Positions 1,513-43,100 of a DNA stretch of 64,000 nt are shown piece by piece; the first letter of the stretch is position 1, and the number at the start of each line of letters is the position of its first letter. Below the pieces are notes generated by a model. It was given only the letters and a program-made list of their open reading frames with translations, made no database searches and was not told the DNA's origin. Both the position numbers and the translations under genes were made by a program. Origin of the DNA: an uncultured Acidobacteriota bacterium (lineage in GTDB: Bacteria > Acidobacteriota > Vicinamibacteria > Vicinamibacterales > Fen-181); assembly GCA_963741715.1 (NCBI GenBank), contig CAVUJA010000002.1, forward strand, positions 136,883-200,882, in the 5' to 3' direction.

Positions 1513-2565
1513 TTATTTCACCAGGTACTGGAAGACGGCCTGCAGGTTGTCGTCGGGCGACGTGACCTCGGCAATCTCGCCCGCTTCGCCCGTCGCCGCC
1601 AGTTCGGTCAGCCGCGCGTAGAACCCGTCGGGCGCCGCCGTCTGCACCACCACCGCCCCCTCCTCGAACTTCAGGCTGATCACATCGTCGTGGGCGAGGA
1701 ACCGGCGGGCCAGGCCGCGCGTGTCGGCCGCGCGGATGAAGACGGTGTGCGGGTGCGTGTCGATGAGGTCGCGGATCTGGTGGACGTTGCCCTCGGCCAG
1801 GATCCGCCCGTTGTTGATCAGGAGGATGTTGGACGTCATCGACTCGATCTCGTGCAGGATGTGGCTCGAGACGATGACCGTCTTGCCGGCGCGCGCCCAG
1901 TCCTTGATCAGGCGGATCGTCTTGCGGCGGCCGAGCGGGTCCATGCCCGCCAGCGGCTCGTCGAGGATCAGCAGCTCGGGGTCGTGGACGATCGCCTGCG
2001 CCAGCTTCACGCGCTGGCGCATCCCCTTGCTGTAGCCGCCGATCTTCTTGTCGGCGGCGGCCAGCAGGTCCACCGTGTCGAGCGCGCGGCGCGCCGCCTC
2101 GGTGGATTCCCGTTCCGAGTAGCCATTGAGGCGAACCAGCGCGGCCACCCACTCGAGGCCCGTCATCCGGTCGTAGAAGGCGTCCTGGTCCGGACAGAAT
2201 CCCACGCGGAAGTAGATCGCCGGGTTCGACCAGATCGGCTCGCCGAGCACCTTGATCGTCCCCTTGCTCGGCTTGAGCTGCCCGGTCATCAGCTTCATGA
2301 AGGTGGACTTCCCGGCGCCGTTCGGCCCGAGGAGGCCGGTGACGCCAGGGGGCACGCTCACCGACACGTCGTTCAGGCCGATCACCTGGCCGTACCACTT
2401 CGACAGCTTGACCGCTTCGATGGCCGGGGCGAGGCTCGCCGAAGAGCTCGTGCCGCCCTCGCCCACACGGGCCTGCTCCGCGGTGGCGCTCTCGAGTTCG
2501 TCGGCGCGAAGGTGGGCCGGCCCCGCCGTAGCGCTCGCAGTGTCGTCGGCGCGAAGGTGCGTCAC
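1513..2565 (-). CDS. ABC transporter ATP-binding protein
   Basis: Walker A GPNGAGKST, signature YSKGMRQR, Walker B LLILDEP, H-loop SSHIL. The 656-aa track ORF 1513..3483 is a read-through artefact; its N-terminal part overlaps the real permease gene in another frame. GTG at 2565 overlaps the permease stop (GTGA), so the start is inferred. Confidence 0.85.
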   Translation of the reverse strand: MTHLRADDTASATAGPAHLRADELESATAEQARVGEGGTSSSASLAPAIEAVKLSKWYGQVIGLNDVSVSVPPGVTGLLGPNGAGKSTFMKLMTGQLKPSKGTIKVLGEPIWSNPAIYFRVGFCPDQDAFYDRMTGLEWVAALVRLNGYSERESTEAARRALDTVDLLAAADKKIGGYSKGMRQRVKLAQAIVHDPELLILDEPLAGMDPLGRRKTIRLIKDWARAGKTVIVSSHILHEIESMTSNILLINNGRILAEGNVHQIRDLIDTHPHTVFIRAADTRGLARRFLAHDDVISLKFEEGAVVVQTAAPDGFYARLTELAATGEAGEIAEVTSPDDNLQAVFQYLVK

Positions 2566-3401
2566 GACACCACCTCCACCCCGCGCACGCGGCGTTCGAG
2601 GACCCACAGCGAGACGCCGATCACCACGACCATCGCCAGCAGCGAGACGGCGGCCGGCGTGGAGTAGCGCGGCTCGAGGCGGAAGATGATGTCCCCAATC
2701 TGGTTGAGGTTGCCGGGCAGCGACAGCCACGACATCTTCGTGCTGCCGGTGACCGCGTAGATCACCCCGAAGACGGCGTGGCTGAACCAGTAGGCGCCCG
2801 CGTAGAGGATGGCGACGTAGCGGCTGCTCTTGCTGAGCGAGGAGAGCGCCAGCATCGTGAACGCCGCCAGCAGCACCTGCAGGAAGGAGAAGACGGTGAC
2901 CGCCGGGAACAGGTAGAAGTTCTGCCGCAGGAACGTGAAGCTGCCGCTGAACGCGACCTGCAGGACCAGCAGGAGGATGGCCGGCACCCAGGTGACCAGC
3001 AGCAGGAACGCGGCGAGGATCACCAGCTTGCCGGCGATGTACTCGGTGCGGGTGAGCGGCTTCGACAGGTAGATCTGCAGCGCGTTGGCGCGCTTGTCGT
3101 TGGCGATCAGGCCGGCGCCCACCCAGACGGTGATGGTGAAGACGAAGAAGTCCTGCGTGCCCAGGAACTCGCGGAACCGCTGGGCGGTCATCGACAGCAG
3201 CGTGAACTGCGGGAAGTTGGCGTTCAGGTAGACCATCACCGCGCCGACGACGAACGGGATCCACGCGAGGACCAGCAGGCCGAGGAACAGCCGCTTGCGG
3301 ACGATGGTGCGGATGCCGTTGACGGCAATCACCATCCACGCCTGCCCGGCCTGTGCCCGCAGCCCCGCGTATCGCCGGTAGGATTGGTCGTGTATCGGCA
3401 T
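2562..3401 (-). CDS. ABC-type transporter permease / polytopic membrane protein
   Basis: 279-aa ORF MPIHDQSYRRYAG... with about 6 hydrophobic helices, sandwiched between two ABC ATPase genes on the same strand. Confidence 0.7.
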   Translation of the reverse strand: MPIHDQSYRRYAGLRAQAGQAWMVIAVNGIRTIVRKRLFLGLLVLAWIPFVVGAVMVYLNANFPQFTLLSMTAQRFREFLGTQDFFVFTITVWVGAGLIANDKRANALQIYLSKPLTRTEYIAGKLVILAAFLLLVTWVPAILLLVLQVAFSGSFTFLRQNFYLFPAVTVFSFLQVLLAAFTMLALSSLSKSSRYVAILYAGAYWFSHAVFGVIYAVTGSTKMSWLSLPGNLNQIGDIIFRLEPRYSTPAAVSLLAMVVVIGVSLWVLERRVRGVEVVS

Positions 3402-3473
3402 CTACTGCATCTCCGACGGCTTGCGGCCTGCGGCCTGCGGCCGGCGGCACGGTCGCCTTCGGCTCGCGATCCT

Positions 3474-3618
3474 CACTAGCCACTACCCACTACCCACTAC
3501 CACTAGCCACTAGCCACTAACCACTAGCCACTAACCACTAGCCACTACCTACTAGCCACTACGCACTAGCCACTAGCCACTACGCACTAGCCACTAGCCA
3601 CTAGCCACCAGCCACTAC
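3474..3618. repeat. tandem heptamer array (CCACTAG)n, about 20 units
   Basis: Read directly: cactagc cactacc cactacc ... ccactag ccactag ccaccag ccactac. It fills the gap between the stop of the ATPase gene (3615-3617) and the region upstream of the permease start (3401). Period 7 puts TAG/TAA in all frames on both strands. Confidence 0.95.
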
Positions 3619-4559
3619 TCTTCCCCAACTGCCTTGGCGAACACGTCCTCGAGCGTGGGCACGCTCGGGCGGAGGTGGCGAACCTGCACCTTCTCCCGGT
3701 CGGCCATCGCGAACAGCGTGCGGGCGCCCTCGTCCGGCCCCACGAGCACGCGCAGGACTTCATCGTCCGTCTCGTGGCACTCGAACCCGGCGGCGGCGAG
3801 CGTGGCGGTAAAGGCCTGGCGGTCGCCCTTGATGCGCAGCTCGAACACCTGCTTGCGCGTGCCCTTCAGCGTGTCGATCGGCCCCTGCGCCACCACCTGG
3901 CCCTTGTCCAGCACGACGACGTTGGTGCAGGTGTATTCGACGTCGGGCAGGAGGTGCGAGGAGAGGATCAGGTTGATCTGCTTCTCGTACGCGAGGTCGC
4001 GCACCAGGTCGAGCATCTCGTCGCGGCCCTTGGGGTCCATCCCGTTGGTCGGCTCGTCGAGGAACAGCAGGTCGGGGTCGTGGACGAGCGCCTGCGCGAG
4101 CTTGATGCGCTGCTTCATCCCGGTCGAATAGGTTTCGAGGTTGCGGTAGCGCGCCTCGCCCAGGCCGACGTAGTAGAGCACCTCGTGCGCGCGCTGCATC
4201 GCGTCGCTGGCCGGCAGGCCCGCGAGCTGGCCGCAGTAGGCGACGAACGACACCGCGTTCATGCCCGGGATGTGGCCGTCGGTCTCGGGCATGTACCCGA
4301 TGCGCCGGCGGATGTCGAGGGGGGATTTGGCGACATCGAGGCCGAAGACGCTCATGCGGCCGGAGGTGGGCACCAGGAAGCCGAGCAGCGACTTGAGCAT
4401 CGTGCTCTTGCCGGCGCCGTTGGGCCCCAGCAGGCCGGTGGCCCCGCCGTGGAACGCCGCGGTGACGTCGCGGAGCGCGGCGCTTTTTCCGTAGGCGACG
4501 CTGACCGCCTCGAGGGCAACGACGGGGGTGGTGTCCGGCTCGGCCATCTCACTGTCCAA
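3615..4559 (-). CDS. ABC transporter ATP-binding protein
   Basis: Walker A GPNGAGKST, signature YSTGMKQR, Walker B LLFLDEP, H-loop SSHLL; 314 aa. Confidence 0.9.
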   Translation of the reverse strand: MDSEMAEPDTTPVVALEAVSVAYGKSAALRDVTAAFHGGATGLLGPNGAGKSTMLKSLLGFLVPTSGRMSVFGLDVAKSPLDIRRRIGYMPETDGHIPGMNAVSFVAYCGQLAGLPASDAMQRAHEVLYYVGLGEARYRNLETYSTGMKQRIKLAQALVHDPDLLFLDEPTNGMDPKGRDEMLDLVRDLAYEKQINLILSSHLLPDVEYTCTNVVVLDKGQVVAQGPIDTLKGTRKQVFELRIKGDRQAFTATLAAAGFECHETDDEVLRVLVGPDEGARTLFAMADREKVQVRHLRPSVPTLEDVFAKAVGEE

Positions 4560-5193: not shown

Positions 5194-5235
5194 AGGATTC
5201 AGGATTCAGGAGTCGGGATTCGGGATTCAGTTCAG
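5194..5235. repeat. tandem heptamer array (AGGATTC/AGGAGTC/GGGATTC)n, 6 units
   Basis: aggattc aggattc aggagtc gggattc gggattc agttcag. It begins at the nucleotide next to the ATG (5193) of the HD gene. Confidence 0.9.
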
Positions 5236-10519: not shown

Positions 10520-11671
10520 CTACAGCTTCAGCGCCGCGTCCGCGTTGAGGCTCCAGTCGGCGGTAACGCCCGCGCGGTAGCGGCGCAGGCCGGCGGCGGC
10601 GATCATCGCCGCGTTGTCGGTCGAGAGGGCAAGCGTCGGGAGGAAGACGGGCAGGCTCAGCTCCGCGCCGCGGGCCGCGGCGTCCTCGCGCAGCCGGCTG
10701 TTGGCCGACACGCCGCCCGCGATCCCCACGCTCTTCGCGCCGTGGCGCCAGGCGGCCTCGAACAGCCGATCGACGAGCGTCTCGACGACCACGCGCTGGA
10801 AGCTGGCGCAGATGTCGGCGATCTCGGCGGGCGTGAACGGTGCGGGCGCCGCATCCGCCCCCGTCCCCTGTCCCTCGTGCCTCGCCCCTCGTCCCCCGTC
10901 CCTCGTCCCTCGTCCCTCGTTCCCTGTCCCTCGCCCCTCGTCCCCAATTCCTCGGCCCTTGACGTACCGCGAAACCGCCGTCTTGATCCCGCTGAAGCTG
11001 AAGTCCAGCCGGCCGGCGAGGTCGGGCGCGTTGCGATCGCGGTGCGTGATGCGCGTCATGGGAAACGCCACCGCGCGGTCGTTGCCCTCGCGCGCCAGCT
11101 TGTCGATGATCGGCCCGCCCGGGTAGCCCAGCCCCAACAGCTTCGCCACCTTGTCGTACGCCTCGCCCGCCGCATCGTCCCGGGTGCGCGCGATCAGCCG
11201 ATAGACGCCAGCTTCCGGAACGAGATACAGGCTCGTGTGGCCGCCCGAAACGACGAGGACGACCGACGGAAGAGGAAGCGGGCCGTTGTGGAGGAAGAGC
11301 GACTCGATGTGGCCCGCGAGGTGGTGCACGGGGACGAGCGGCTTGCCGATGGACGCCGCAAACGACTTCGCGAACTGCAGGCCCACCAGCAGCGAGCCAA
11401 CCAGCCCAGGCCCCTGCGTCACCGCGACCGCGTCGATCCCCCGCGCGTCGATCCCGGCATCGAGCAGCGCCTTCTCGACGACCCCGCAGATGTCGCGGAC
11501 GTGCTGCCGCGACGCGAGTTCCGGAACCACGCCGCCCCACTCGCGGTGGATGTCCACCTGGGACGCGACCACGCTCGAGCGGATCTGCCACGGACGCGCC
11601 GCGTCATCGACTTCGGCCACCACGGCGGCGGCCGTTTCGTCGCACGAGCTCTCGATTCCCAGGATCTGCAT
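10520..11671 (-). CDS. tsaD: tRNA N6-adenosine threonylcarbamoyltransferase TsaD, with a repeat-encoded ~33-aa insertion
   Basis: Kae1/TsaD motifs GIESSCDET, HHLAGH, VSGGHTSL, DFSFSGIKTAV, GGVSANSRL, STDNAAMIA. 383 aa, about 40 longer than usual, because of GRGIGDEGRGTGNEGRGTRDGGRGARHEGQGTG. Confidence 0.92.
   Translation of the reverse strand: MQILGIESSCDETAAAVVAEVDDAARPWQIRSSVVASQVDIHREWGGVVPELASRQHVRDICGVVEKALLDAGIDARGIDAVAVTQGPGLVGSLLVGLQFAKSFAASIGKPLVPVHHLAGHIESLFLHNGPLPLPSVVLVVSGGHTSLYLVPEAGVYRLIARTRDDAAGEAYDKVAKLLGLGYPGGPIIDKLAREGNDRAVAFPMTRITHRDRNAPDLAGRLDFSFSGIKTAVSRYVKGRGIGDEGRGTGNEGRGTRDGGRGARHEGQGTGADAAPAPFTPAEIADICASFQRVVVETLVDRLFEAAWRHGAKSVGIAGGVSANSRLREDAAARGAELSLPVFLPTLALSTDNAAMIAAAGLRRYRAGVTADWSLNADAALKL
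10858..10955. repeat. tandem heptamer array (CCCTCGT)n, about 14 units, inside the tsaD coding sequence
   Basis: cccccgt cccctgt ccctcgt gcctcgc ccctcgt cccccgt ccctcgt ccctcgt ccctcgt tccctgt ccctcgc ccctcgt ccccaat tcctcgg. On the coding strand this is (ACGAGGG)n and is stop-free in every frame. Confidence 0.95.
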
Positions 11672-12806: not shown

Positions 12807-12821
12807 AGGGTGCGATCATAC

Positions 12822-12917
12822 AGGATTCAGGAGTCAGGATTCGGGATTCGGGACGGCGCAGACCCGCCGAATCCCACCTGGATCCCACTGACTCCCGACT
12901 CCCGGCTCCTGAATCCT
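12822..12917. repeat. inverted pair of heptamer arrays (AGGATTC-type arm and its complement) forming a hairpin
   Basis: Left arm aggattc aggagtc aggattc gggattc ggga (12822-12852). Right arm cgaatcc ...ctgactcc cgactcc cggctcc tgaatcc t (12868-12917). About 15-nt loop. Sits between the mtnA start (12806) and the cdd stop (12923). Confidence 0.9.
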
Positions 12918-13527: not shown

Positions 13528-14586
13528 TCACAGGACGCCTGGATGGGGCGCCTCGATGTCGGTGAATCGCACCATCCGTTGCTGCGCCTCGTCCCACAGC
13601 CGCAGGCGGACCAGGCGCAGGCTTCCGCGGAGCGTCAGCGGCGGAACCTCGTGGAACGCCGGCACGCGGTCCTGGCACTGCTGCAGGGCGTAGCTCGGAA
13701 TGCGCGGCTGGACGTGATGGATGTGGTGCAGGCCGATGCTGCCGGTGAACCACTGCAGCACCTTCGGCAGCTTGTAGTACGAACTGCCGGCCAGGGCCGC
13801 GCGCCACGGGTTCCACGCCTCGTGCCGGCTCCAATAGACGTCGTCGAACTGGTGCTGCACGTAGAACAGCCAGATCCCGGCCGCGCCGCCGAGCAGTCCA
13901 ACGGGCGCCGCCAGCAGGACGAAGTTTCGGAAGCCGAACGCCAGCACCGCCCCGGCGAGTAGGGCCGCGGCGCCCGCGTTGGTGAAATGCACGCTGAATC
14001 GCTCGCGGCGGCTCGCGTGTCGCGGGCAGAACCGGTGCTGGATGACAAAGACGAACACGGGACCGATGGCGAACATCACCAGCGGATTCCGGAAGGCTCG
14101 ATAGAAAAACCGCTGCAGGCGCGACGCCGCCAGGTACTCCTTGACCGTCAGCGTCCACACGTCGCCGACCCCGCGCCGGTCCAGGTCGCCGACGGTCGCG
14201 TGGTGCCGGACGTGCGCGCGCTGCCACCGCTCGAACGGGGTGAGGGTCAGCAGGCCCGTGATGTAGCCGACCACACGGTTGGCCCGGGCCGACGGAAACA
14301 GCGAGCCGTGACAGCAGTCGTGAAAGAGGATGAAGACCCTCACGGTCAGGCCGGCGGCGAGGACCGTCAGCCCGAGGGCCGCGGCCGGATGTCTGCGGAC
14401 CAGCCAGGCCATCGCCGCCCAGACGGCGACGTACGGGACGAGGGTTTCGATCAGTTGCCAGGTTGCGCGCCGCGTATCGGCTCGCGCGAACGCCGCAACC
14501 GCCGGGTACCAGTCGGGCCTCGCCCGGACGGGTGCCGCGCCCTCGTCGGCCGCCGAAATCGTCATCGGTGCCGTGGCTTCTTCCAT
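13528..14586 (-). CDS. membrane fatty-acid desaturase
   Basis: Three histidine boxes HDCCH, HVRHH, HHIHH, plus hydrophobic helices. The start is placed at ATG 14586 (MEEATAP...); the longer track ORF adds 69 unlikely codons. Confidence 0.85.
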   Translation of the reverse strand: MEEATAPMTISAADEGAAPVRARPDWYPAVAAFARADTRRATWQLIETLVPYVAVWAAMAWLVRRHPAAALGLTVLAAGLTVRVFILFHDCCHGSLFPSARANRVVGYITGLLTLTPFERWQRAHVRHHATVGDLDRRGVGDVWTLTVKEYLAASRLQRFFYRAFRNPLVMFAIGPVFVFVIQHRFCPRHASRRERFSVHFTNAGAAALLAGAVLAFGFRNFVLLAAPVGLLGGAAGIWLFYVQHQFDDVYWSRHEAWNPWRAALAGSSYYKLPKVLQWFTGSIGLHHIHHVQPRIPSYALQQCQDRVPAFHEVPPLTLRGSLRLVRLRLWDEAQQRMVRFTDIEAPHPGVL

Positions 14587-14832
14587 GTCCGGAAATCCCG
14601 CCGGGCCCCTGGGCGCCAACGTCCGCCGGCTGGGAAAGGGACCCTGACGTGTCCATTTTGACTGGCCGCCGGGGCGCTCGCTGTTCACAATTGGACAGCC
14701 CGAAAAGGTGACTGCTGCCGAATCGGAAGACGTCCGCGGCGCCGCCTTAGCGCAAGGCAACGAACGTCCTGTGCGGCCGAGCTCGAAATACACTGTCGGC
14801 GCGGGCGGTGGTGGCCAGTACCGCAGTTCCGA

Positions 14833-15654
14833 CTACAGCGCCGTGACGACGCCTTCGAGCAGCGAGATGAATTGATCCTTCACCCGCGTGGCCGTTGCCA
14901 TGACTTCCGCGTGGTTCAGCGGCTGGTCCAGCACGCCGGCGGCCATGTTCGTGATGCACGAAATCGCCAGCACCTCGAGGCCCATGTGGCGCGCGACGAT
15001 GGTTTCGGGCACGGTGGACATGCCCACCGCGTCGGCGCCGATCGACCGGAGGTAGCGAATCTCGGCCGGCGTTTCGTAACTCGGGCCGTGCAGCCCGACG
15101 TAGATGCCGTGCGCCACCGCAATGCCTCTCGCCGCCGCCACCACGTCGGCCAGCCCGCGCAGCCGCTTCGAGTACGCGTCGGTCATGTCGGGGAAGCGGG
15201 GCCCGAAGCGCTCGTCGTTGGGCCCGATCAGCGGGTTGGTGCCGAACAGGTTGATGTGGTCGTCGATCACCATCAGCGCGCCCGACTCGAACGAGGTGTT
15301 GATGCCGCCCGCGGCGTTGGTGAGGATGACGGTCTTCACGCCGAGCAGGCCGAGGACGCGGACCGAGAACGTGGATCGCGGCAGCGGGTGCCCTTCGTAG
15401 AAGTGCGCGCGCCCGGAGAGCACCGCGATCTGCTTGCCGCACAACTCCCCTGCCACCAGCTTGCCGGCGTGGCCCACGACGCCCGACGGCGGCCAGTTCG
15501 GGATCTGGAGGTAGGGGATCGTCGTCGCCGCGTTCACGCGGCCGGCGAAATCGCCGAGCCCCGAGCCCAGGACGACGGCGAGTTCGGGAACACCCCCCAG
15601 CGCCCGGCGCAGGTACTCGGCAGCTTCGGAGACCTGATCGTAGTAGGTGGACAT
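14833..15654 (-). CDS. punA: purine nucleoside phosphorylase (trimeric PNP/PunA type)
   Basis: 273 aa from ATG 15654 (GGAG 5 nt upstream). Pattern VVLGSGLG ... GHAGKLV.G ... GRAHFYEG ... LTNAAGG ... GPSYETPAE ... GADAVGMSTVPE. The upstream 54 codons of the track ORF are translation of the octamer array. Confidence 0.85.
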   Translation of the reverse strand: MSTYYDQVSEAAEYLRRALGGVPELAVVLGSGLGDFAGRVNAATTIPYLQIPNWPPSGVVGHAGKLVAGELCGKQIAVLSGRAHFYEGHPLPRSTFSVRVLGLLGVKTVILTNAAGGINTSFESGALMVIDDHINLFGTNPLIGPNDERFGPRFPDMTDAYSKRLRGLADVVAAARGIAVAHGIYVGLHGPSYETPAEIRYLRSIGADAVGMSTVPETIVARHMGLEVLAISCITNMAAGVLDQPLNHAEVMATATRVKDQFISLLEGVVTAL

Positions 15655-15670
15655 GATGACTCCATGCGCA

Positions 15671-16008
15671 GATAACTGGATAACTGAAGAACTGGATAAC
15701 TGGATAACTGGATAACTGGATAACTGGATAACTGAACTGGATAACTGAAGAACTGGAGAGCTGGGGAACTGAGTGACGGCACAACTGCGCAATTGCGTGA
15801 CCGCGCAACTGCACAACTGACGCCGCTGCAGTACCGCGTGGCAGAACAGTTGGCGCGCGACTTGCCCCAGTTACCCGGTTGTCCAGTTGCCCAGTTACCC
15901 AGTTGCCCAGTTGCCCAGTCCTCCAGTCTCCCAGTTGCCCAGTTATCCAGTTGCCCAGTTGCCCAGTTGCCCAGTTGCCCAGTTTCCCAGTTCTCCAGTT
16001 CTCGAGTT
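15671..16008. repeat. inverted pair of octamer arrays: (GATAACTG-like)x19 then (CAGTTGCC-like)x20
   Basis: Left arm 15671-15819, unit NNNAACTG. 27-nt spacer. Right arm 15847-16008, unit CAGTTNNC. The arms are mutually complementary. The right arm abuts the nupC stop (16007-16009), and the left arm ends 17 nt before the PNP start. Confidence 0.95.
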
Positions 16009-17401
16009 ACAGCAAGAACCCCGCAATGGTCGCGGTCACGAAGTTCGCCAGCGTGCCGGCCAGCATCGCGCGGAAGCCGAGGCGCGCCAGGTCGTGGCGG
16101 CGGTTCGGCGCCAGCGCGCCGATGCCGCCGATCTGGATGCCGATCGAGCTGAAGTTGGCGAAGCCGCACAGCGCGAACGTGGCGATGGTGAACGACTTCA
16201 TGTCGATCTGCCCGAACAGCGGGCCGGCCGCGTGCAGCGCCGTCGCCCCCGAGTACTTGCCGAGTTCCGAATACGCGACGAACTCGTTCAGCACCATGCG
16301 CGTGCCGAGCAGGTTGCCGATGATCTGCGAGTCCTTCCAGGGCACGCCCATCGACCACGCCACCGGCGCGAACGCCCACCCGAGAATCTGCTGCAAGGTC
16401 AGCCCAACCAGGCCGAGGCACGCGTTGACCAGCGCGACCAGCGCGAGGAACGAGATGAGCATCGCGCCGACGTTCAGCGCCAGGTGCAGGCCCTCGCCGG
16501 TGCCGCGCCCCGCCGCGTCGATCACGTTCACGTCGGTCCTCGGCACGTCCAGCTTCACCGTCCCCATCGTCTTGGGCGAGTCGGTCTCGGGAACGAACAT
16601 CTTGGCCATCATCAGCGTGCCCGGCGCGGTCATGATGACCGCCGTCAGCAGGTGCTTGGCCTCGATGCCGAACAGGATGTAGGCCGCCATGATGCCGCCG
16701 GAGATGTGCGCCATCCCCGACGTCATCACCGTCATCAGCTCGGACTGCGTCATCTCGGGCAGGTAGGGACGGATGGTCAGCGGCGCCTCGGTCTGCCCCA
16801 TGAAGATGCTCGCGGCGACGTTCAGCGACTCGGCCCCGCTCGCCTTCATCACGCGGCGCATCAGGTACGCGAACCCGCGCACGACCAGCTGCATGACGCC
16901 GAAGTAGTAGAGGATGGCGAAGAGCGCCGCGATGAAGATGATGGTCGGCAGCACCTGGAAGGCGAAGATCGTCCCGTACTGCGCGCCGTCGGGCCCGAGG
17001 ACGGTGGTCATGATCTTCGGCCACGCCTTCTTGTCGCCGAGCGGCCCGAAGACGAACGACGAGCCGACGTCGGCAAACGCCAGCAGCTGCGTGATGCCGT
17101 CGCTCGCCTTCTGGAAGATCACCGAGCCCGCGTTGGTCTTCAGGACGCCGAGCGCGAAGAGGATCTGCAGGCCGAGGCCCCACGCGACGGTCTTCAGGTC
17201 GATCGCGCGCCGGTTGCTGGACATCAGGTAGGCGATCCCGAGGATCACCACCAGGCCGACCACCGCCTGCACGCGGGGCATGCCCCCGAACTTGGCGAGG
17301 AGGGCGGCGACGACGGCGATGACGATCGCGGCGCCGACGATGAGGAACTCGATCCGGCGGGAAGCGGCCGGGGCCACAGGTTTCGAGTCGGTTGAATTCA
17401 C
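16007..17401 (-). CDS. nupC: NupC/concentrative nucleoside transporter family permease
   Basis: Family-typical blocks GSSFVFG, FAFQVLPTIIF, ASIFMGQTEAPL, MTSGMAHISGG, ATFALCGFANFSSIGIQIGG. GTG 17401 with GAGGAG 5 nt upstream. Confidence 0.9.
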   Translation of the reverse strand: MNSTDSKPVAPAASRRIEFLIVGAAIVIAVVAALLAKFGGMPRVQAVVGLVVILGIAYLMSSNRRAIDLKTVAWGLGLQILFALGVLKTNAGSVIFQKASDGITQLLAFADVGSSFVFGPLGDKKAWPKIMTTVLGPDGAQYGTIFAFQVLPTIIFIAALFAILYYFGVMQLVVRGFAYLMRRVMKASGAESLNVAASIFMGQTEAPLTIRPYLPEMTQSELMTVMTSGMAHISGGIMAAYILFGIEAKHLLTAVIMTAPGTLMMAKMFVPETDSPKTMGTVKLDVPRTDVNVIDAAGRGTGEGLHLALNVGAMLISFLALVALVNACLGLVGLTLQQILGWAFAPVAWSMGVPWKDSQIIGNLLGTRMVLNEFVAYSELGKYSGATALHAAGPLFGQIDMKSFTIATFALCGFANFSSIGIQIGGIGALAPNRRHDLARLGFRAMLAGTLANFVTATIAGFLL

Positions 17402-17556
17402 GCGTTCTCCTCGACAGCAGTGCCGGTTCGGCCTACTCGTCTCGCGGGCGTGGGGGTTCGTGTCGGTGCCGGAGCCACCGCTGCACCGCGGCCCCACCGC
17501 CTCCCGACCCGCCTCCGCAGGCCGGTAAACCTCCTCGCGGTGCGCCGGTTTCCGGT

Positions 17557-17612
17557 CCCTTCGACTCGCTTCGCTCGCTCAGGATCGCCCCGAGCACGGT
17601 CGAGGGGCGGCT
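17557..17612. repeat. REP-like GC-rich element (CCCTTCGACTC...CTCAGG..CGCCCCGAGCA..GTCGAGGGGCG)
   Basis: The same ~55-nt element occurs in reverse orientation at 26872-26925. Its ends are self-complementary (CCCTTCGAC / GTCGAGGGG). Confidence 0.75.
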
Positions 17613-17816
17613 CTCGGAATCGGGCTTGCGCTAACCGCGCTGGGCTGACCGCTACGCGCTGCGCCCGGGAAAGGCACCCCAACGCGGCTGCCGCGTCGGG
17701 GACCCCGCCGAGAAGCGCACGCGCTCGTCGGTTTTCGGCACCGTGACGCGGCCTGCTCCGAAGCGGCTCGTCCGGCGATGGGCCCGCGGCACAGCGGTGA
17801 ACCGGGCCACCCGCGG

Positions 17817-19121: not shown

Positions 19122-19137
19122 AAGGGCGAAGTATACG

Positions 19138-19221
19138 TCAGGATTCAGGAGTCAGGATTCGGGAGTCAGGAGCAGCACGATTCAGGAGTCAGGATTCAGG
19201 AGTCAGGATTCGGGAGTCAGT
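19138..19221. repeat. tandem heptamer array (AGGATTC/AGGAGTC/GGGAGTC)n, about 11 units
   Basis: tcaggattc aggagtc aggattc gggagtc aggagca gcacgattc aggagtc aggattc aggagtc aggattc gggagtc ag. Starts 17 nt from the deoA ATG. Confidence 0.95.
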
Positions 19222-19223
19222 TG

Positions 19224-19857
19224 GTCGCACCGAATCCCGGCTCCCGCGCTTGTCAGCCTCACAAATGGGTCGTTCACCGCCGCCAAGGGAGACACAGGGA
19301 CGGCGGTTTCGATCACTCCCCACTCGGCATGGGCTCCTGGCGGCGGGTGGATCTCCTACGCGCCGACAGGTATCGGACCGGACAACATTCTCGCGCCAAC
19401 CTACAACACGCCGATCGTCGCCTCGGACCCCGCGGACCAACGGCAGGCGATCGTTCTCTTCACCCGCACATTCGCCGCCAACGAGGGTCAGACCTTGATC
19501 ATGAAGCTGTGGGCCGACGACACAGCCTTCATGCGGGTCGACGGCGGAGCGTGGGTCCCCACGGCGCATACGTGGGCCCAGAGCGTCTGCGAGACCGATC
19601 CGACCTCCTGTTCAGCCAATGAGTACTCGCTTGGCAGTTTCGACCTGTTGTTCACCGGCGATCACACGCTTGAGATCCGCGCATACCAGATCGGGACCGC
19701 AACGACCTACCCTAACCCCACCTTCTTCGGGGACAACAACAGCAACCCGTTCGGCATCAAATACGAGGGCAGTGTGGTTCCAGACGGCGGTGCAACTCTG
19801 ATGCTGCTCGGCGGCGCGCTGGCGGGCTTGGCGGCCCTCAGGAGACTCCGGGGCTAA
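19224..19857 (+). CDS. PEP-CTERM-like (VPDGG variant) sorting-signal protein, apparently 5'-truncated / without signal peptide
   Basis: The C-terminus VPDGGATLMLLGGALAGLAALRRLRG has the motif / TM helix / basic tail architecture. The open frame extends upstream through the heptamer array to 19036. There is no ATG/GTG/TTG between 19117 and the Leu (TTG) before IMKLWADD, and no signal peptide, so the 5' boundary is uncertain. Confidence 0.5.
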
Positions 19858-19860
19858 GCT

Positions 19861-21339
19861 CAATGCCTTTCGGAAATTCGGCGTCGTGAATTTCCCCGTG
19901 TACTTTTTACACTTGTACTTTTCCGACGAGATCGGTATTTATCCTGGGGATGCGACATCCTCCCCAGACACGACGGCGTCGAGATCGGCGCGAAGCGATC
20001 GACGCGTCGGCGCCGCCCGCCGGATTCCTTGGCGCGTGGGACCGGTTGCTCGACGGCGACACGCCGTCGTTGCCGCCCCGACGCGGACGCAAGCCACGCG
20101 TTCCATTGACCCAGGTGTTGCCCGCCCTTACCTTTCACGTGATGAAAGGGCCGGGCACATTGGGCGAGCACTTTGCGGAGTTGTTCGAGGCGTCGCTGGC
20201 CGACAGTTCGCTGGCGGACCGACGCGCGCGGCTGCCGTGGGAGATCTTCACGGAGTTGATGCGCCGCATGTTGCGCCCGCGGGCCACGCGGCGTCGCGAG
20301 CCGGAGGCGTTCTGGAACGGGTGGCGCTTGACGGCCCTCGATGGGACGCAATGGAGTCTCACCAATACGCCGCAGATCACCTCGGCGGTCCGCAAGGCGC
20401 GCACACGCCGAGGCCGCGCGGCGTTCGCGAAGCTGCCGACCGCCGTGCTGCTCGAGCTCGGCCTCCACAACCCGGTGGCCGCGGCGATTGGGCGCGACGG
20501 CGAGTCCGAGTGGGCGCTGGCCCTGACCCTGCTGAGCCACATCCCGCCGCGCGCGCTGGTCCTCGCGGACCGGCTGTATGGTTGCGGCGCGTTCACCGCG
20601 CCGCTCCAGGCGGCGTGCGAGCGTGTCGGCAGCCACTTCCTGGTCCGGGCGCAGATGTCCGTCAAGGCGCGCGTCGTGAAGCGGTTGCGCGATGGCAGCC
20701 GCCTGGTAACCGTGGCGGTCACGCCCCGCTATCGGGTGACGCCGGACGCCACCACGCTGACGGTACGCGAAATTCGGGTGCAGGTCGGCCGGCCCGGCGC
20801 CCGGCCCACGACGCTGCGGTTGTGGACGAGCCTCACCGACGCGCGGACGGCCCCGGCGCTGGATCTCGCACGGCTGTACGCGCAGCGGTGGGAGCACGAG
20901 CTGTATTTTCGCGAAGTGAAGCGGCACCTGCGGCGGACCGACTTGCTGCAGAGTCATACCGTCGAGACGGCCGCCCAGGAGATCGCCGCGATCGTGCTCG
21001 CCAGCGCCCTGCTCGCCGTCGAACGCACCCGCGCAGCCGACGGGAAAGTGCCGGTGCTGCGCGTGAGTTTCGCGAAGATGCTCCCGGTCGTCGAAGCCAT
21101 GTGGTTCACGCTGGATGTGGCCGCTCCGGTCCTGACCGAGCGACAGACGCAGTACATCCTCACGCAGATGTATGCACGGATGCGGCACCACATCACGCCG
21201 GCACGTCGACCGCGTTCATGTCCACGGGCCGTGCGGCAGCCGGTCACCGGCTGGCCGCGATTGATGAAGAACACGTCCGTCGAAGCGCCTCTTGAGTTCA
21301 CGGTCGTATGAGCGTCTCAGCAATTTCCGAAAGGCATTG
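19861..21339 (+). mobile_element. IS4-family insertion sequence, intact (1479 bp)
   Basis: 18-bp perfect terminal inverted repeats CAATGCCTTTCGGAAATT (19861-19878; complement 21322-21339). 10-bp direct target duplication GGGCTAAGCT (19851-19860 and 21340-21349). Single transposase ORF. Confidence 0.92.
19950..21311 (+). CDS. IS4-family DDE transposase
   Basis: 453 aa. Contains the Y-(2)-R-(3)-E-(6)-K signature YAQRWEHELYFREVK typical of IS4 transposases, plus LTALDGT and VLADRLYG acidic-residue blocks. Confidence 0.9.
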   Translation: MRHPPQTRRRRDRREAIDASAPPAGFLGAWDRLLDGDTPSLPPRRGRKPRVPLTQVLPALTFHVMKGPGTLGEHFAELFEASLADSSLADRRARLPWEIFTELMRRMLRPRATRRREPEAFWNGWRLTALDGTQWSLTNTPQITSAVRKARTRRGRAAFAKLPTAVLLELGLHNPVAAAIGRDGESEWALALTLLSHIPPRALVLADRLYGCGAFTAPLQAACERVGSHFLVRAQMSVKARVVKRLRDGSRLVTVAVTPRYRVTPDATTLTVREIRVQVGRPGARPTTLRLWTSLTDARTAPALDLARLYAQRWEHELYFREVKRHLRRTDLLQSHTVETAAQEIAAIVLASALLAVERTRAADGKVPVLRVSFAKMLPVVEAMWFTLDVAAPVLTERQTQYILTQMYARMRHHITPARRPRSCPRAVRQPVTGWPRLMKNTSVEAPLEFTVV

Positions 21340-24517: not shown

Positions 24518-24580
24518 CAGGAGTCGGATTCAGCAGTCGGTGGTCCCCCCCGAATCCTGCCCCCCGACTCCTGAATCCTG
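24518..24580. repeat. hairpin built from heptamer-type units (CAGGAGTCGGATTC... / ...GAATCC..CCGACTCCTG)
   Basis: caggagtcgg (24518-24527) pairs perfectly with ccgactcctg (24564-24573). ggattc (24526-24531) pairs with gaatcc (24552-24557). Lies 40 nt upstream of the HEAT-gene start. Confidence 0.85.
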
Positions 24581-24618: not shown

Positions 24619-26823
24619 ATGGTAGAGACCCCCTCGACACCGCTTTCGCCCGAGGCCGCCACGCGGCTGATGGCGTTTGCGCGCGCGTGCAAGGGTGCCG
24701 CGCGGGCGGTCGCGCTCTACCCGCCCGAGCACCCGGCCATCGGCGAGGCCCTGCAGCGCCTGGCCGCCGCCGCCGAGGCCGCCACCGCCTCGGGCCCGCT
24801 CTCGGTCGTCGTCCTCCCCGACAACCTGCTGGTGGGCGGCCGCGTCGCCGCCCGCCCCGACGCCGGCCTGGCCGAACTGGCCGCGCTGCTGCACGACCAC
24901 ATGGTCGCCGAGATCACGGTCCAGCCGGACGTCGAGGAACCGGCCTGGCGGACGTTCCTGGAACTGCTCGGCCGCGACCCGGTGCACCTGCGCGCGCACG
25001 GCGGCATCGCCCGCGCGCTGACCACCGCCGGCGGCGTGGGCATCGAGATCACCGAACTGGACTACTCGGGCCTCATCAAGGACCGCGACTCGGGCTGGCT
25101 GGCCACGTGGGACTCGATCATCGCCCACTGCCTGCAGAAGGACTCGCTGGACCTCGACGACGAGACGCTGCGGCTGCTGGGCGAAATCGCCCGCGACCCC
25201 TCCCGCCTCGCCGACTTCTTCGAGCGCACGGAGGACCACCCCGGCGGGCACAGCATCCCCGAGCTGGCCGCGGCGCTGCTGCGCGCGCTGCGCGACATCG
25301 CCGACTACATCGGCCGCCAGGAGCCGGCGCGCCTGCCGACGATCTTCGACAACATGGCGTCGGCCATCTCGCGATTGTCGCCCGACTTCGTGATGGAGCT
25401 GGTGGAGGAGGGTCAGGACGACGCCAGCGATCACGCGAAACTGATCAAGGAGATCACCAGCCGCGTCACCGAGACGACCATCGCCCAGTTCATCGCCCGC
25501 TCCGTCGCGCGCGAACGCGCGTGCACCGCGCGGCTCGCCGACGCGTTCCGCGCCCTCGCCGCCACCCCGGCCCGGCAGGAAGCCGCCGTCAGCCTGGCGC
25601 ACCAGGAACTGGCCACGTCGCCGATGGGCGAGGAGGCGAGCTTCCCGCGCCTGTGGAACACCGTGGAGCGCATCCTCCTCTCCTACTCCGACAAGGACTG
25701 GGTGTCGGACACCTACAACCGCGAGCTCTCGTCCGCGCAGGCCCGCGCCGGCGACTCCGAGCACCTCTTCGACGACCCTCCCGAGCGCGTCGTCGGGTGG
25801 TTGACGACGGTGAGCGACGCCGCGATCAGGAGCTGGGACCTGCAGCTGCTGGCCGACCTGCTCGTCCTCGAGACGGATGCCGGCAACCGCGAGGAGCTGC
25901 TGCAGCTGGTGTCGGGCCAGGTGGAGGAACTGGTCATCCTCGGCGACTTCGAGGGCGCGCGGAAGCTCGTGGAATCGCTGATCGCCTTCGGCGACCAGGC
26001 GACGTCGCCCGGGGTGCAGGCGCAGCTGGCGCGGGCGCTGGACCAGATCGTCGCGGGCCCGTTCATGTCGCACGCGGCGGTCCACCTCAACGCGGTGCGC
26101 GACGACGAGTTCGAGCAGGTGAAGGCGCTGTTCGCGGCGCTCGGGCCGGGCCTGGTGCCGAAGCTGGCCGACACGCTGGTGACCGAGGCGCGCGCCCGGG
26201 CGCGGCAGCGGCTCACCGAGCTGTTCATGATGTTCGGCGAGCACGGCAAGAGCTCGGTGGACCAGCTGCGCCAATCGCCCAACCCCAGCGTCCGCCGCAC
26301 GGCGGTGCAGCTGCTGCGGTCGTTCGGCGGCCCCGAGTCGCTGCCGGATCTCGAGATCCTCGTGAACGACCCCGAGCCCGCGGTGCAGCGCGAGGCCGCC
26401 CGGGCGTTGATCGGCTTCGGCTTCGACGAGTCGTTCGATCTGCTCACGCGGATGCTGCGCAACAACAAGCTCCAGGGCCGGAAGGCGCTGATCGAGGAGC
26501 TGGTCTCGACGCACGATCACAAGACCGGGCCGCTGTTCTGCCACCTGGTTCGACACCTGGCGTGCACCGGGCCCGCACGCGAGGTCTACCTCCGGTCGAT
26601 CGGCCGGCTCGGGCTGCTCGGCGGCCCCGAGGCCGTGGCGGCGCTCGCCGAGGTGCTGCGGAAGGGACAGTGGTGGGCGCCGATGCGGACGCGCGAGGTG
26701 CGGGCGGAAGCGGCGGCGGCGCTGGCGCAGATCAAGCTGCCCGAGGCGCGCGAGGCGCTGCGCGACGCGGCCGAGAACGGCACGTTCGGCGTTCGCGCGG
26801 CGGCGCGGCGGTTCATTAAGTAG
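24619..26823 (+). CDS. large HEAT-repeat protein with an N-terminal module shared with the adjacent HD-GYP protein
   Basis: 734 aa from ATG 24619. C-terminal HEAT/armadillo-like repeats (NPSVRRTAVQLLRSFGG, DPEPAVQREAARALIGFG, ...ALAEVLRKG, ...AAAALAQIK, ...VRAAARRF). The N-terminus (AVALYPPEHPAI) parallels QLYAPGHPLV of the next gene. Confidence 0.75.
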   Translation: MVETPSTPLSPEAATRLMAFARACKGAARAVALYPPEHPAIGEALQRLAAAAEAATASGPLSVVVLPDNLLVGGRVAARPDAGLAELAALLHDHMVAEITVQPDVEEPAWRTFLELLGRDPVHLRAHGGIARALTTAGGVGIEITELDYSGLIKDRDSGWLATWDSIIAHCLQKDSLDLDDETLRLLGEIARDPSRLADFFERTEDHPGGHSIPELAAALLRALRDIADYIGRQEPARLPTIFDNMASAISRLSPDFVMELVEEGQDDASDHAKLIKEITSRVTETTIAQFIARSVARERACTARLADAFRALAATPARQEAAVSLAHQELATSPMGEEASFPRLWNTVERILLSYSDKDWVSDTYNRELSSAQARAGDSEHLFDDPPERVVGWLTTVSDAAIRSWDLQLLADLLVLETDAGNREELLQLVSGQVEELVILGDFEGARKLVESLIAFGDQATSPGVQAQLARALDQIVAGPFMSHAAVHLNAVRDDEFEQVKALFAALGPGLVPKLADTLVTEARARARQRLTELFMMFGEHGKSSVDQLRQSPNPSVRRTAVQLLRSFGGPESLPDLEILVNDPEPAVQREAARALIGFGFDESFDLLTRMLRNNKLQGRKALIEELVSTHDHKTGPLFCHLVRHLACTGPAREVYLRSIGRLGLLGGPEAVAALAEVLRKGQWWAPMRTREVRAEAAAALAQIKLPEAREALRDAAENGTFGVRAAARRFIK

Positions 26824-26851
26824 GATTCGGGAGTCGGGATTCGGGATTCAG
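26822..26851. repeat. tandem heptamer array (AGGATTC/GGGAGTC/GGGATTC), 4 units
   Basis: aggattc gggagtc gggattc gggattc ag. Starts inside the TAG stop (26821-26823) of the HEAT gene. Confidence 0.9.
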
Positions 26852-26871: not shown

Positions 26872-26925
26872 CACGTCGCAGGTCGCCCCTCGACGTTGCT
26901 CGGGGCGCCCTGAGCGGAGTCGAAG
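26872..26925. repeat. REP-like GC-rich element, inverted copy of 17557-17612
   Basis: The reverse complement reads gcccttcgactccgctcagggcgccccgagcaacgtcgaggggcg. Confidence 0.75.
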
Positions 26926-26949
26926 GGCGCAAGTCGGAATGGTGAGCCA

Positions 26950-28334: not shown

Positions 28335-28383
28335 AGGGATCGGGGATCAGGGATCGGGGATCGGGGATCAGGGATCAGGGACT
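28335..28383. repeat. tandem heptamer array (RGGGATC)n, 7 units
   Basis: agggatc ggggatc agggatc ggggatc ggggatc agggatc agggact. Starts 9 nt after the HD-GYP stop. Confidence 0.95.
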
Positions 28384-36890: not shown

Positions 36891-36925
36891 AGGACTCTCG
36901 ACTCTCGACTCGTGACTCTTGACAG
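36891..36925. repeat. tandem heptamer array (TCGACTC-type), 5 units, upstream flank of vapC
   Basis: aggactc tcgactc tcgactc gtgactc ttgacag. Ends 9 nt before ATG 36935. Confidence 0.9.
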
Positions 36926-36934
36926 CCAGGTGGG

Positions 36935-37303
36935 ATGCTCAATCTTGACACCCACGTCCTGGTCGCGCTCCTCGAGGGCTCGCTGAAGCCCGCCGAGGAG
37001 GCGCTGGTCGCCGACGAGGAACTGGCGATCTCGGACATCGTGCTCTGGGAGCTGGCGAAGCTCGTCCAACTCGGCCGGCTCGAGATGGATCTCGACAGCC
37101 CGGCCTTCCGGCGCGCGCTCGACCACATCACCGTCGTCCCGATGTCGGCGGACATCGCCAGCCTGAGCACCCAGCTGGATTTCAAGTCCGACCCGGCAGC
37201 CGAACTCATCGCCGCCACCAGCCTGTCCGCCGGCATGCCGCTCCTCACCAGGGACCGGCGCATCCTGCGCTCCAAGGTCGTTCCCTTCGCCCGGCGCGCT
37301 TGA
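36935..37303 (+). CDS. vapC: PIN-domain ribonuclease toxin (VapC family), no adjacent antitoxin gene
   Basis: MLNLDTHVLVALL..., ISDIVLWELAKL, ...DPAAELIAATSLSAGMPLLTRDRRI: the acidic residues and layout of a PIN/VapC protein. 122 aa. Confidence 0.85.
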   Translation: MLNLDTHVLVALLEGSLKPAEEALVADEELAISDIVLWELAKLVQLGRLEMDLDSPAFRRALDHITVVPMSADIASLSTQLDFKSDPAAELIAATSLSAGMPLLTRDRRILRSKVVPFARRA

Positions 37304-37404
37304 CGCTCGACTCTCGACTCCTGACCCTCGACTCCAGACTCTTGACTGTTGACTCTGGGCTGTTGACTCCGGACTCTTGACTCTTGACTCTCGACTCTTG
37401 GTGT
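37300..37404. repeat. tandem heptamer array (TCGACTC/TTGACTC)n, 15 units, downstream flank of vapC
   Basis: ttgacgc tcgactc tcgactc ctgaccc tcgactc cagactc ttgactg ttgactc tgggctg ttgactc cggactc ttgactc ttgactc tcgactc ttggtgt. The first unit contains the vapC TGA stop. Confidence 0.95.
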
Positions 37405-43054: not shown

Positions 43055-43100
43055 TAGGATTCGGGAGTCAGGATTCGGGAGTCAGTAGGATTCGGGATTG
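43055..43100. repeat. tandem heptamer array (AGGATTC/GGGAGTC), about 6 units
   Basis: taggattc gggagtc aggattc gggagtc agtaggattc gggattg. Starts 3 nt after the epsI stop. It is the last array seen in the window. Confidence 0.9.

Follow-up and report, generated by a model that had tools for sequence, protein, structure and literature searches.

The intercistronic palindromes of enterobacteria known as REP/BIME, of which malE-malF offers an example, are extragenic and co-transcribed, act as a barrier to 3'-exonucleases that stabilizes upstream mRNA and give rise to differential expression of the genes on either side. Correia elements of Neisseria are mobile and dispersed, have defined terminal inverted repeats and form hairpins that are cleaved by RNase III. 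Cyanobacteria carry the short repeat STRR1, CCCCAGT, which reads ACTGGGG on the opposite strand. Tandem arrays of TAACTGA direct repeats occupy intergenic DNA in Beggiatoaceae, Cyanobacteria and Bacteroidetes; these repeats are predicted to be unstructured and have been proposed as protein-binding sites for translational control, and one inverted case is recorded among 170 repeat sets (MacGregor 2015, PMC4679880).

The nearest described system to the locus considered here is the set of inverted heptamer repeat pairs of Xanthomonas. [quoted passage not shown] 2015, PLoS One, PMC4692102). [quoted passage not shown] In Xanthomonas the repeat length varies between related genomes while the single or inverted type is retained (PMC4692102). 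The literature that we searched held no relevant paper on repeats of Vicinamibacter or Luteitalea, and none that describes repeats of this kind in Vicinamibacteria.

We analysed a 64-kb stretch of DNA from an uncultured bacterium of the Acidobacteriota (the window). On its minus strand a nucleoside-salvage operon runs in the order deoA, nupC, a repeat array, PNP, a fatty-acid-desaturase-family gene, cdd and mtnA:

19121-17817, minus strand: deoA, first gene of the operon (NF004490 at 2.7e-163)
16007-17497, minus strand: nupC, upstream cistron, NupC/NupG nucleoside transporter; stop codon TAA at 16009-16007
14833-15654, minus strand: PNP, downstream cistron; ATG at 15654-15652, N-terminus MSTYYDQV in agreement with the starts of relatives
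14793-13528, minus strand: fatty-acid-desaturase-family gene, after PNP in operon order
13315-12923, minus strand: cdd, between the desaturase-family gene and mtnA
12806-11766, minus strand: mtnA, last listed gene of the operon

Both genes that flank the array are what the original prediction took them to be. The nupC product scores 435.6 bits against TIGR00804 (1.9e-130), slightly below the curated cut-off of 442. It is well over the cut-off for Pfam Nucleos_tra2_N, Gate and Nucleos_tra2_C, and its C-terminus, which ends in GFLL before the stop, aligns across 80 relatives. Translation of nupC starts at GTG 17497 or, more likely, at the GTG near 17401. The downstream protein is a purine nucleoside phosphorylase (NF006054 at 9e-111).

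We scanned the nupC-PNP gap and found no promoter-like site and no U-tract terminator, so that the array is most simply part of the operon transcript. An intrinsic (Rho-independent) terminator, a GC-rich stem-loop with a U tract behind it, was rejected; the sense sequence past the stem is CUGCGCAUGGAG. We also rejected a phase-variable contingency SSR, which would lie within a reading frame or among promoter elements, since the array separates a stop codon from a Shine-Dalgarno sequence and the gap has no promoter-like site.

In the order of the mRNA, the gap is made up as follows:

15847-16008, minus strand: 5' arm in mRNA sense (the right arm on the plus strand), about 20 AACTGGGC-type units, G-rich
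15820-15846, minus strand: apical region of the hairpin, a spacer of 27 nt of non-repeat sequence with only small local stems in the minimum-free-energy structure
15758-15819, minus strand: degenerate inner part of the 3' arm, with units CAGTTGTG, CAGTTGCG, CGGTCACG, CAATTGCG and similar; TRF period 8, 70% matches
15671-15757, minus strand: clean outer 3' arm (the left arm on the plus strand), with eight exact CAGTTATC, two CAGTTCTT and one 5-nt unit
15655-15670, minus strand: linker with the PNP Shine-Dalgarno sequence, 16 nt; GGAG at 15663-15660, with 5 nt between it and the ATG

Two facing octamer arrays, with 19 units on the left and about 20 on the right, had been predicted, and the sequence, the unit parse and TRF all agree with that description. 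Equally sound are the 27-nt spacer, the occupation of the whole intercistronic gap from the nupC stop to just before the PNP Shine-Dalgarno sequence, and the start of the right arm at that stop, whose last two bases are shared by the first unit, AACTCGAG. One figure has to be corrected: the distance between array and PNP ATG had been given as 17 nt and is 16 nt.

On the plus strand the left arm (15671-15819) parses into 19 units and begins GATAACTG GATAACTG AAGAACTG GATAACTG. Eight of its units are exact copies of GATAACTG, two are AAGAACTG and one is truncated to 5 nt; the inner seven or eight (15758-15819) are degenerate, for example CACAACTG, CGCAATTG and CGTGACCG. The right arm (15847-16008) consists of about 20 CAGTTGCC-like units and reads, from 15847, CAGTTGGC ... 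CAGTTGCC CAGTTACC CAGTTGCC ... CAGTTCTC GAGTTA. Seven units match CAGTTGCC exactly (GCCCAGTT in a rotated frame), and the others are variants CAGTTACC, CAGTTATC, CAGTTCTC, CAGTCCTC and CAGTCTCC together with two degenerate inner units. At period 8, TRF reports 11.2 copies in 15671-15757, 4.8 copies in 15782-15819 and 16.9 copies in 15866-16000. Inverted-repeat arms of 60-85 nt that are 72-82% complementary were detected in many registers. The window contains 15 copies of the two-unit pattern AACTGGNNAACTGG, every one of them within this region; the number expected from shuffles is 0.00. The dominant variant differs by arm. In mRNA sense the 5' arm is dominated by AACTGGGC and the 3' arm by CAGTTATC, which complements GATAACTG; a lone AACTGGAT unit persists in the 5' arm according to the unit parse.

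The region folds strongly. We ran the fold of 15640-16040 that had been proposed as a check. The mRNA-sense minus strand reaches -204.2 kcal/mol with z = -11.9, and the plus strand reaches -189.9 kcal/mol with z = -11.6. In 100 shuffles no sequence was as stable as the native one. For the dominant units, the expected pairing of six Watson-Crick pairs, one G-U pair and one mismatch per unit is correct, the mismatch being C-A. The arms had been said to form a duplex of ~150 bp. Their complementarity holds and an imperfect duplex is predicted, although its predicted size is ~135 bp.

The stem is register-free, as had been claimed. Reshuffling the order of units within either arm leaves stability unchanged: on refolding, the native order gives -184.5 kcal/mol, a shuffled 3' arm -188.7 +/- 6.2 and a shuffled 5' arm -180.0 +/- 5.6. 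Unit order is therefore not tuned for pairing, and many zipping registers are possible. Mirrored positions of variant units in the two arms, which we had seen by eye, were set aside because the native order has no energetic advantage. Sequestration of the Shine-Dalgarno sequence by the stem base was also dropped, as its pairing partner shifts with the fold window. Rfam returned no matches at the gathering threshold over the whole window; a permissive scan gave H19_3 at E = 0.37, a chance match only.

How does the junction look in relatives? Relatives of its NupC assign the window to the Acidobacteriota, order Vicinamibacterales, and the best match, from a Danish soil MAG, is 90% identical. The identical PNP protein is recorded on one contig only. 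The next PNPs are 86-87% identical, and we found no strain-level relatives in which unit numbers could be compared. Adjacency of nupC and PNP is kept in ~70 of 80 related loci. The junction is mostly tight, with an overlap or a gap of less than 20 nt as the usual state: in ~30 of 70 relatives the two genes overlap or abut (gap of -6 to +9 nt), and in a further quarter or so the gap is below 30 nt. With some 40% of relatives in the overlapping or abutting state, the hairpin is no requirement of the operon.

Longer nupC-PNP gaps usually hold arrays of short units, mostly inverted, and the units differ by locus. Inverted short-unit arrays have been gained independently at this junction in ~10 lineages, each with its own unit. 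The closest relatives (L001, which has the 90% identical NupC, L002, L003, L011 and L081) have gaps of 63-98 nt with other repeats. The nupC-PNP gaps of relatives contain:

L003, L011 and L081: AGGATTC-type heptamers facing GAATCCC
L044 and L045: CACGAAGA facing TCTTCGTG
L079: TCGAAGG facing CCTTCGA
L040 and L033: inverted arrays of other units
L001 and L002: one-sided G-rich arrays
L036: a 43-nt hairpin repeat

In every nupC-PNP example that we read by eye, the G-rich arm comes first in sense. The AACTGG octamer is absent from all 81 related loci, which makes the array of the window a recent, lineage-specific gain at an ancestrally tight junction. The 64-kb window holds no second AACTGG array either.

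The exact locus is carried by one assembly only, and short-read contigs of relatives end beside PNP (for example P0004). Both observations would suit an assembly artefact, such as a fold-back chimera or the collapse or expansion of a repeat; insertion of a mobile element (MITE/REP) also has to be considered. However, both genes beside the array are intact and have the correct orientation, the locus lies on a contig of 2.17 Mb, and the arms are imperfect and systematically different, unlike those of fold-back chimeras. Smaller versions of the element occur in dozens of independent assemblies produced with various assemblers. Since neither the window nor the 81 loci contain another copy, and there are no extra terminal repeats, this is not a dispersed mobile element; a MITE was rejected because there is no second copy and no direct duplication bordering the arrays. 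We find an artefact or an insertion scarcely credible.

The octamer does occur in other DNA. When JGI metagenome contigs were scanned for exact runs of four AACTGGNN units, at least 120 contigs matched, and those listed range from 26 to 70% GC and include all NN variants. Of the 127 arrays in the matches listed, ~14 face an inverted partner no more than 350 nt away, and the window locus itself is not among the matches listed. Two contigs resemble the window element:

L084, metagenome contig: GAGAACTG x 12 facing CAGYTCWC x 10
L088, metagenome contig: GATAACTG facing CAGTTATC

The scan covered the AACTGG core alone, and we claim no enrichment of this core from its counts. These arrays, in contigs unrelated to one another and in some cases with inverted partners, could hint at a sequence-specific process. 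An element that works at the level of DNA, as a cruciform or as a protein-binding array with an AACTGG core every 8 bp, might affect replication, the nucleoid or transcription. Such an element would also agree with the fold as single-stranded DNA, which is likewise highly significant (-96 kcal/mol, z = -12.1). Yet with a period of 8 bp each site faces a different side of the helix from the one before it, and enrichment of a core that was scanned without a control is unproven. Extrusion of a cruciform in vivo is unlikely for arms with a degenerate centre and a complementarity of only 75-80%. The units at equivalent junctions of relatives are unrelated, so that no single binding specificity fits. 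A DNA-level role is highly improbable.

The element is not alone in its own neighbourhood. The window contains two further arrays in or beside the operon:

12821-12909, minus strand: smaller hairpin of the same type at the cdd-mtnA junction; inverted heptamers, in sense an AGGATTC/GGGAGTC arm followed by a GAATCCC/GACTCCT arm
19137-19250, minus strand: heptamer array directly upstream of deoA; AGGAGTC/AGGATTC, ~12 units on the plus strand, with a short inverted partner CCGAATCCCGGCTCCCG

Across relatives, the cdd-mtnA gap is ~10 nt in L051, L054, L069, L072 and L078, and inverted arrays occupy it in others:

L025, L032 and L033: CAATTTA facing TAAATTG, 3-4 units
L044: GGTTCTAAA facing CTAGAACC
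L047 and L050: CAGAGGTTC / GAGAGGTTC facing GGAACCTCC / GAACCTCTC
L056 and L065: GGTTC-core units (GGTTCTC) with their complement
L052: CACGAAA facing TTTCGTG
L076: an inverted array

At this junction too, inverted symmetry is retained while the sequence of the unit, and even its length, differ.

We surveyed 746 kb, comprising the window and 80 loci, with TRF (at least 3 copies) and used block-shuffled sequence as the control. The 251 arrays show a sharp peak at period 7 (99 arrays), with 37 at period 9, 34 at period 8 and 26 at period 6; the control gave 7, 3, 4 and 9 arrays at periods 7, 9, 8 and 6. Arrays of 7-8-nt units are thus enriched ~10-fold in these 746 kb, and nearly all are intergenic: 3 of 133 period-7/8 arrays fall within called genes, the gene calls being rough and GC3-based with approximate starts. 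Further inverted array pairs were seen in L035, L044, L022 and L072, and one in L032 is given here:

L032, 8118-8313: TGGTCACT x 15 facing ACCAAATG x 7

Of all the array hairpins found in the survey, the window element is the largest. The original prediction called its repetitive stem unusual. For the lineage this fails, because Vicinamibacterales commonly carry hairpins made of inverted tandem arrays, with a unit specific to each locus, and the description is weakened further by the inverted heptamer repeat pairs already known in Xanthomonas (PMC4692102).

The survey also bears on whether strand and context matter. Arrays lie in co-directional, divergent and convergent gaps in the proportions 70/21/6, against 181/71/26 available gaps, so co-directional gaps are not preferred (72% vs a baseline of 65%). 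Adjacent arrays of equal period are reverse complementary in 12 pairs (at most 1 mismatch) and direct in 4; by our own calculation a random heptamer pair would match thus with a chance of ~1%. In sense, the G-richer arm precedes its partner in 8 of the 9 inverted pairs that lie in co-directional gaps.

Could the G-rich arm be the functional part? On the mRNA and the non-template DNA strand, the stop codon is followed at once by the 5' arm, (GGGCAACU)n. The sense strand has 13 GGG tracts vs 1 CCC tract, and its sequence includes two non-overlapping canonical G3N1-7 motifs, at 15988-15962 and 15916-15890. G-quadruplexes (G4s) formed there might pause ribosomes or RNA polymerase or protect a 3' end, with the C/U-rich arm as competitor. 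The placement of the arm agrees with that of the G4-forming repeats of Xanthomonas and Nostoc (PMC4692102), and a GGGNATC-type array occurs elsewhere in the window (GGGGATC x 6.7 at 28335-28381). The competing duplex, however, amounts to ~-200 kcal/mol. The loops of the motifs are 5 nt long and the tracts comprise only 3 G, and such loops and tracts make weak G4s. Many sister hairpins, such as CAATTTA/TAAATTG and CACGAAGA/TCTTCGTG, have no G tracts at all, and single arrays are more often C-rich than G-rich on the sense strand (28 vs 13). A G4 element is very unlikely.

A more serious rival is that the arrays have no function. Slippage of 7-8-nt units may simply run at a high rate in these genomes, leaving arrays wherever selection allows, as it would between a stop codon and the next ribosome-binding site, with the inverted ones folding away and doing little harm. 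Arrays do occupy each type of intergenic gap about as often as that type is available, units turn over rapidly between close relatives, and the overlapping or near-overlapping junction in ~40% of relatives points the same way. At the RNA level, 23 junction hairpins were compared and the sense fold is the more stable one in 15 of them, which is not a significant excess (15:8, p = 0.21); nor are the units ordered so as to optimise pairing. Because these tests of selection on RNA are negative or weak, a purely neutral origin stays a strong rival. Three observations sit badly with it. Inverted partners are 3-4 times commoner than direct ones (12 vs 4), orthologous junctions retain inverted symmetry although their units change (for which selection for pairing, or else a symmetrising mechanism, is required), and the lead of the G-rich arm in 8 of 9 pairs is unexplained by neutrality alone. 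On this evidence we consider a functionless by-product possible, though rather unlikely.

On balance we lean towards an account in which the element is a hyper-expanded, fast-evolving intergenic repeat hairpin of the Vicinamibacterales that grew by slippage, is co-transcribed and modestly uncouples nupC from PNP. The element would be at most a fold-away hairpin that insulates or stabilizes the mRNA. Judging from the comparison with relatives, both arms of a small intercistronic hairpin probably grew recently through replication slippage. The ancestral nupC-PNP junction would have been tight, with stop and start overlapping, and a short inverted repeat with a periodic stem would have arisen there. 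Once such a stem held two tandem copies of a unit, each arm would be a mini-array prone to replication slippage, and the arms could then lengthen separately, each homogenising to its own variant. Any unit pairs with any unit, so that unequal growth of the arms never destroys the hairpin. The template-switch process known as 'quasipalindrome correction' could add symmetry.

Within the deoA-nupC-PNP-...-cdd-mtnA mRNA, the transcribed element is predicted to form an imperfect stem-loop of ~135 bp, whose helix would have a G-U pair and a C-A mismatch in every 8 bp. The base of the stem would bring the nupC stop beside the PNP ribosome-binding site. The translational coupling of the ancestor may have given way to an independent PNP start driven by its own Shine-Dalgarno sequence (GGAG). 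By analogy with REP elements, the hairpin might act as a barrier to 3'-exonucleases that protects the nupC segment, or it might be a target of double-strand RNases. The levels of nupC and PNP would as a result be uncoupled modestly, to a degree that can be tuned quantitatively, with no dedicated switch. The original prediction expected a structure of this size to have a strong effect on processing, RNase III cleavage or differential expression; any such effect is conjectural.

Some results count against this account. Many relatives do well with no spacer whatever. The lack of a co-directional preference, the 15:8 ratio of sense to antisense stability and the unoptimised unit order are also expected of a neutral mutational by-product.

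A bolder version of the same account can be drawn by analogy, and we hold it to be unlikely. Vicinamibacterales may keep register-free hairpins as 'fold-away' intercistronic spacers, through selection or through a symmetrising mechanism, with re-initiation and a rheostat as the consequences. The base of the stem sets the stop within ~20 nt of the start, so a terminating ribosome could re-initiate across the base of the helix. Such re-initiation would be akin to the ribosome shunting of caulimoviruses or to the bypassing in T4 gene 60. If this version is true, slippage in either arm tunes the length of the hairpin, and hence the stability of the transcript or read-through, and the lineage possesses a quantitatively evolvable rheostat for operon stoichiometry.

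Why does this matter? In a nucleoside-salvage operon, a structured insert of 340 nt has taken the place of an ancestrally coupled stop/start junction, so the dosage of transporter relative to phosphorylase may depend on an unstable repeat. The Vicinamibacterales are among the most abundant soil lineages, and their genomes carry many intergenic hairpins with tandem-repeat arms and locus-specific units. In the literature that we searched, hairpins that keep their symmetry while changing their sequence have no description from Acidobacteriota. They offer a natural system in which to follow the co-evolution of slippage and hairpin structure, and to ask whether such repeats are junk or tunable regulators. 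They also account for contig breaks at gene junctions in short-read assemblies of these genomes.

We can now compare the element with the described systems. It resembles REP/BIME in being an extragenic, imperfect palindrome between cistrons of one operon. REPs, however, are dispersed, share a conserved consensus of ~35 nt and are linked to RAYT, whereas the window element spans 340 nt, consists of tandem units and has one copy in the window and the 81 related loci. We rejected membership of REP/BIME on these grounds: a single copy, arms of tandem units and no dispersed ~35-nt consensus. With Correia elements it shares a long double-stranded RNA stem between genes, which is predicted to be a candidate substrate for RNase III; it differs from them in that they are mobile and dispersed and have defined terminal inverted repeats. 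With the TAACTGA and STRR repeats it shares intergenic arrays of short units with an AACTG or ACTGGG core that end just before start codons. Those are 7-nt direct repeats, whereas the window unit is 8 nt and inverted and the array strongly structured. Membership was rejected for the same three features: the 8-nt unit, the inverted arrays and the strong fold of the region.

The likeness to the Xanthomonas pairs goes further. Both consist of head-to-tail units of 6-9 nt in non-coding DNA that converge on opposite strands, and in both the opposed arrays are close enough together to form a stem-loop. Both lie next to a stop codon between aligned ORFs (here, both flanking genes are on the minus strand), and both have a G-rich arm with G3 tracts. 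Array lengths vary among related genomes in both, although the single or inverted type persists. There are clear differences. The Xanthomonas consensus is the 7-nt GGGNATC, whereas the window units are 8 nt long (AACTGGGC / CAGTTATC in sense). The window element has 19 + 20 units, whereas Xanthomonas pairs typically have 4, with a maximum of 14-26. Unlike the arms of Xanthomonas pairs, the two arms here carry different dominant variants. Xanthomonas uses one consensus unit genome-wide, whereas in Vicinamibacterales each locus has its own unit; in 64 kb of genome and 81 related loci we met no dispersal of one unit over many loci of the Xanthomonas type. The phylum, Acidobacteriota, is also different. 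In the context of its lineage the single element is ordinary, and the notable part is the lineage-wide pattern of symmetric hairpins with fast turnover. The window element is no one-off device: it fits the type of repeat hairpin known from Xanthomonas, but is several times larger and has a unit of its own.

The salvage operon that carries the repeat hairpin has two further genes within it or at its border.

13528-14793, minus strand: fatty-acid-desaturase-family gene (PF00487, 3.8e-27), between PNP and cdd
19950-21311, plus strand: DDE transposase gene (PF01609, 4.2e-14), immediately upstream of the deoA-nupC-PNP operon and divergent from it

The first of these looks like an insertion into the operon; in the related locus L081, PNP and cdd are direct neighbours. 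An untranslated gap (17402-17816) separates deoA from nupC; the corresponding gap in L081 is 25 nt. In the window it spans ∼320–415 nt, the length varying with the nupC start chosen. It has a very high GC content (72–75%) and is predicted to be strongly structured (-248.5 kcal/mol over 451 nt, calculated without a shuffle control). No tandem arrays were found in this gap.

The nupC-PNP gap is also repetitive in a relative. In locus L036 (5263-5513) a 43-nt unit with the REP-like hairpin GGGCGGGGCTTCAGCCCNGCC occurs there four times, and a heptamer array of GAAGTAA comes next. On the short-read contig of an 87%-identical relative (P0004, JGI 3300075153) PNP starts 30 nt from the contig end, and on the contig of another relative (P0002) there is a 168-nt gap 5′ of PNP. 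Each observation would fit a tendency of short-read assemblies to break at repeat arrays in the nupC-PNP junction.

At the cdd-mtnA junction, a TACAAT box ∼6–12 nt 5′ of the mtnA ATG is conserved across many relatives (loci L044, L047, L050, L056, L065, L035, L041, L068, L073 and L080); its counterpart in the window is TATGAT (∼12815-12820). This box suggests a promoter, from which mtnA would be transcribed as a leaderless mRNA or one with a very short leader. If so, the upstream repeat hairpin would lie at the end of the preceding transcription unit.

Low-GC (32–34%) metagenome contigs carry a dispersed element that starts with TATCTCGTAAAGATGGTTAG and contains inverted CCAGTT / AACTGG octamer arrays.

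L122, 1620-1810 and 2930-3010: two copies in one contig
L085, 840-1015: one copy

Possibly the element is a MITE-like, mobile relative, in a different phylum, of the repeat hairpins. Within the window, two mutually similar segments (26880-26930 and 17540-17600, minus strand; CCCCTCGAC..GCTCGGGGCG..CTGAGCG..AGTCGAAGGG) may represent a dispersed REP-like element, and a strict pattern search matched solely the copy at 26898-26916.

Tandem arrays are numerous in the window.

3417-3448: CGGCCTG × 4.6 array, adjoining the next
3474-3617: CACTAGC × 20.7 array, 144 nt, flanked by minus-strand genes at 2562-3401 and 3615-4547
24520-24580: small inverted array pair

The CACTAGC array fills the gap between its flanking genes, and no inverted partner of it was found. 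Further intergenic heptamer arrays lie at 5194-5230, 10858-10945, 26823-26849, 28335-28381, 36893-36923, 37299-37400 and 43056-43085, as well as at the inverted pair. Their units include CCCTCGT × 12.6, CTYGACT × 14.6, AGGATTC/GGGAGTC types and GGGGATC × 6.7 (28335-28381). Several window heptamer units contain GANTC (as GAGTC or GATTC), and the GGGGATC array matches the GGGNATC type published for Xanthomonas (PMC4692102).
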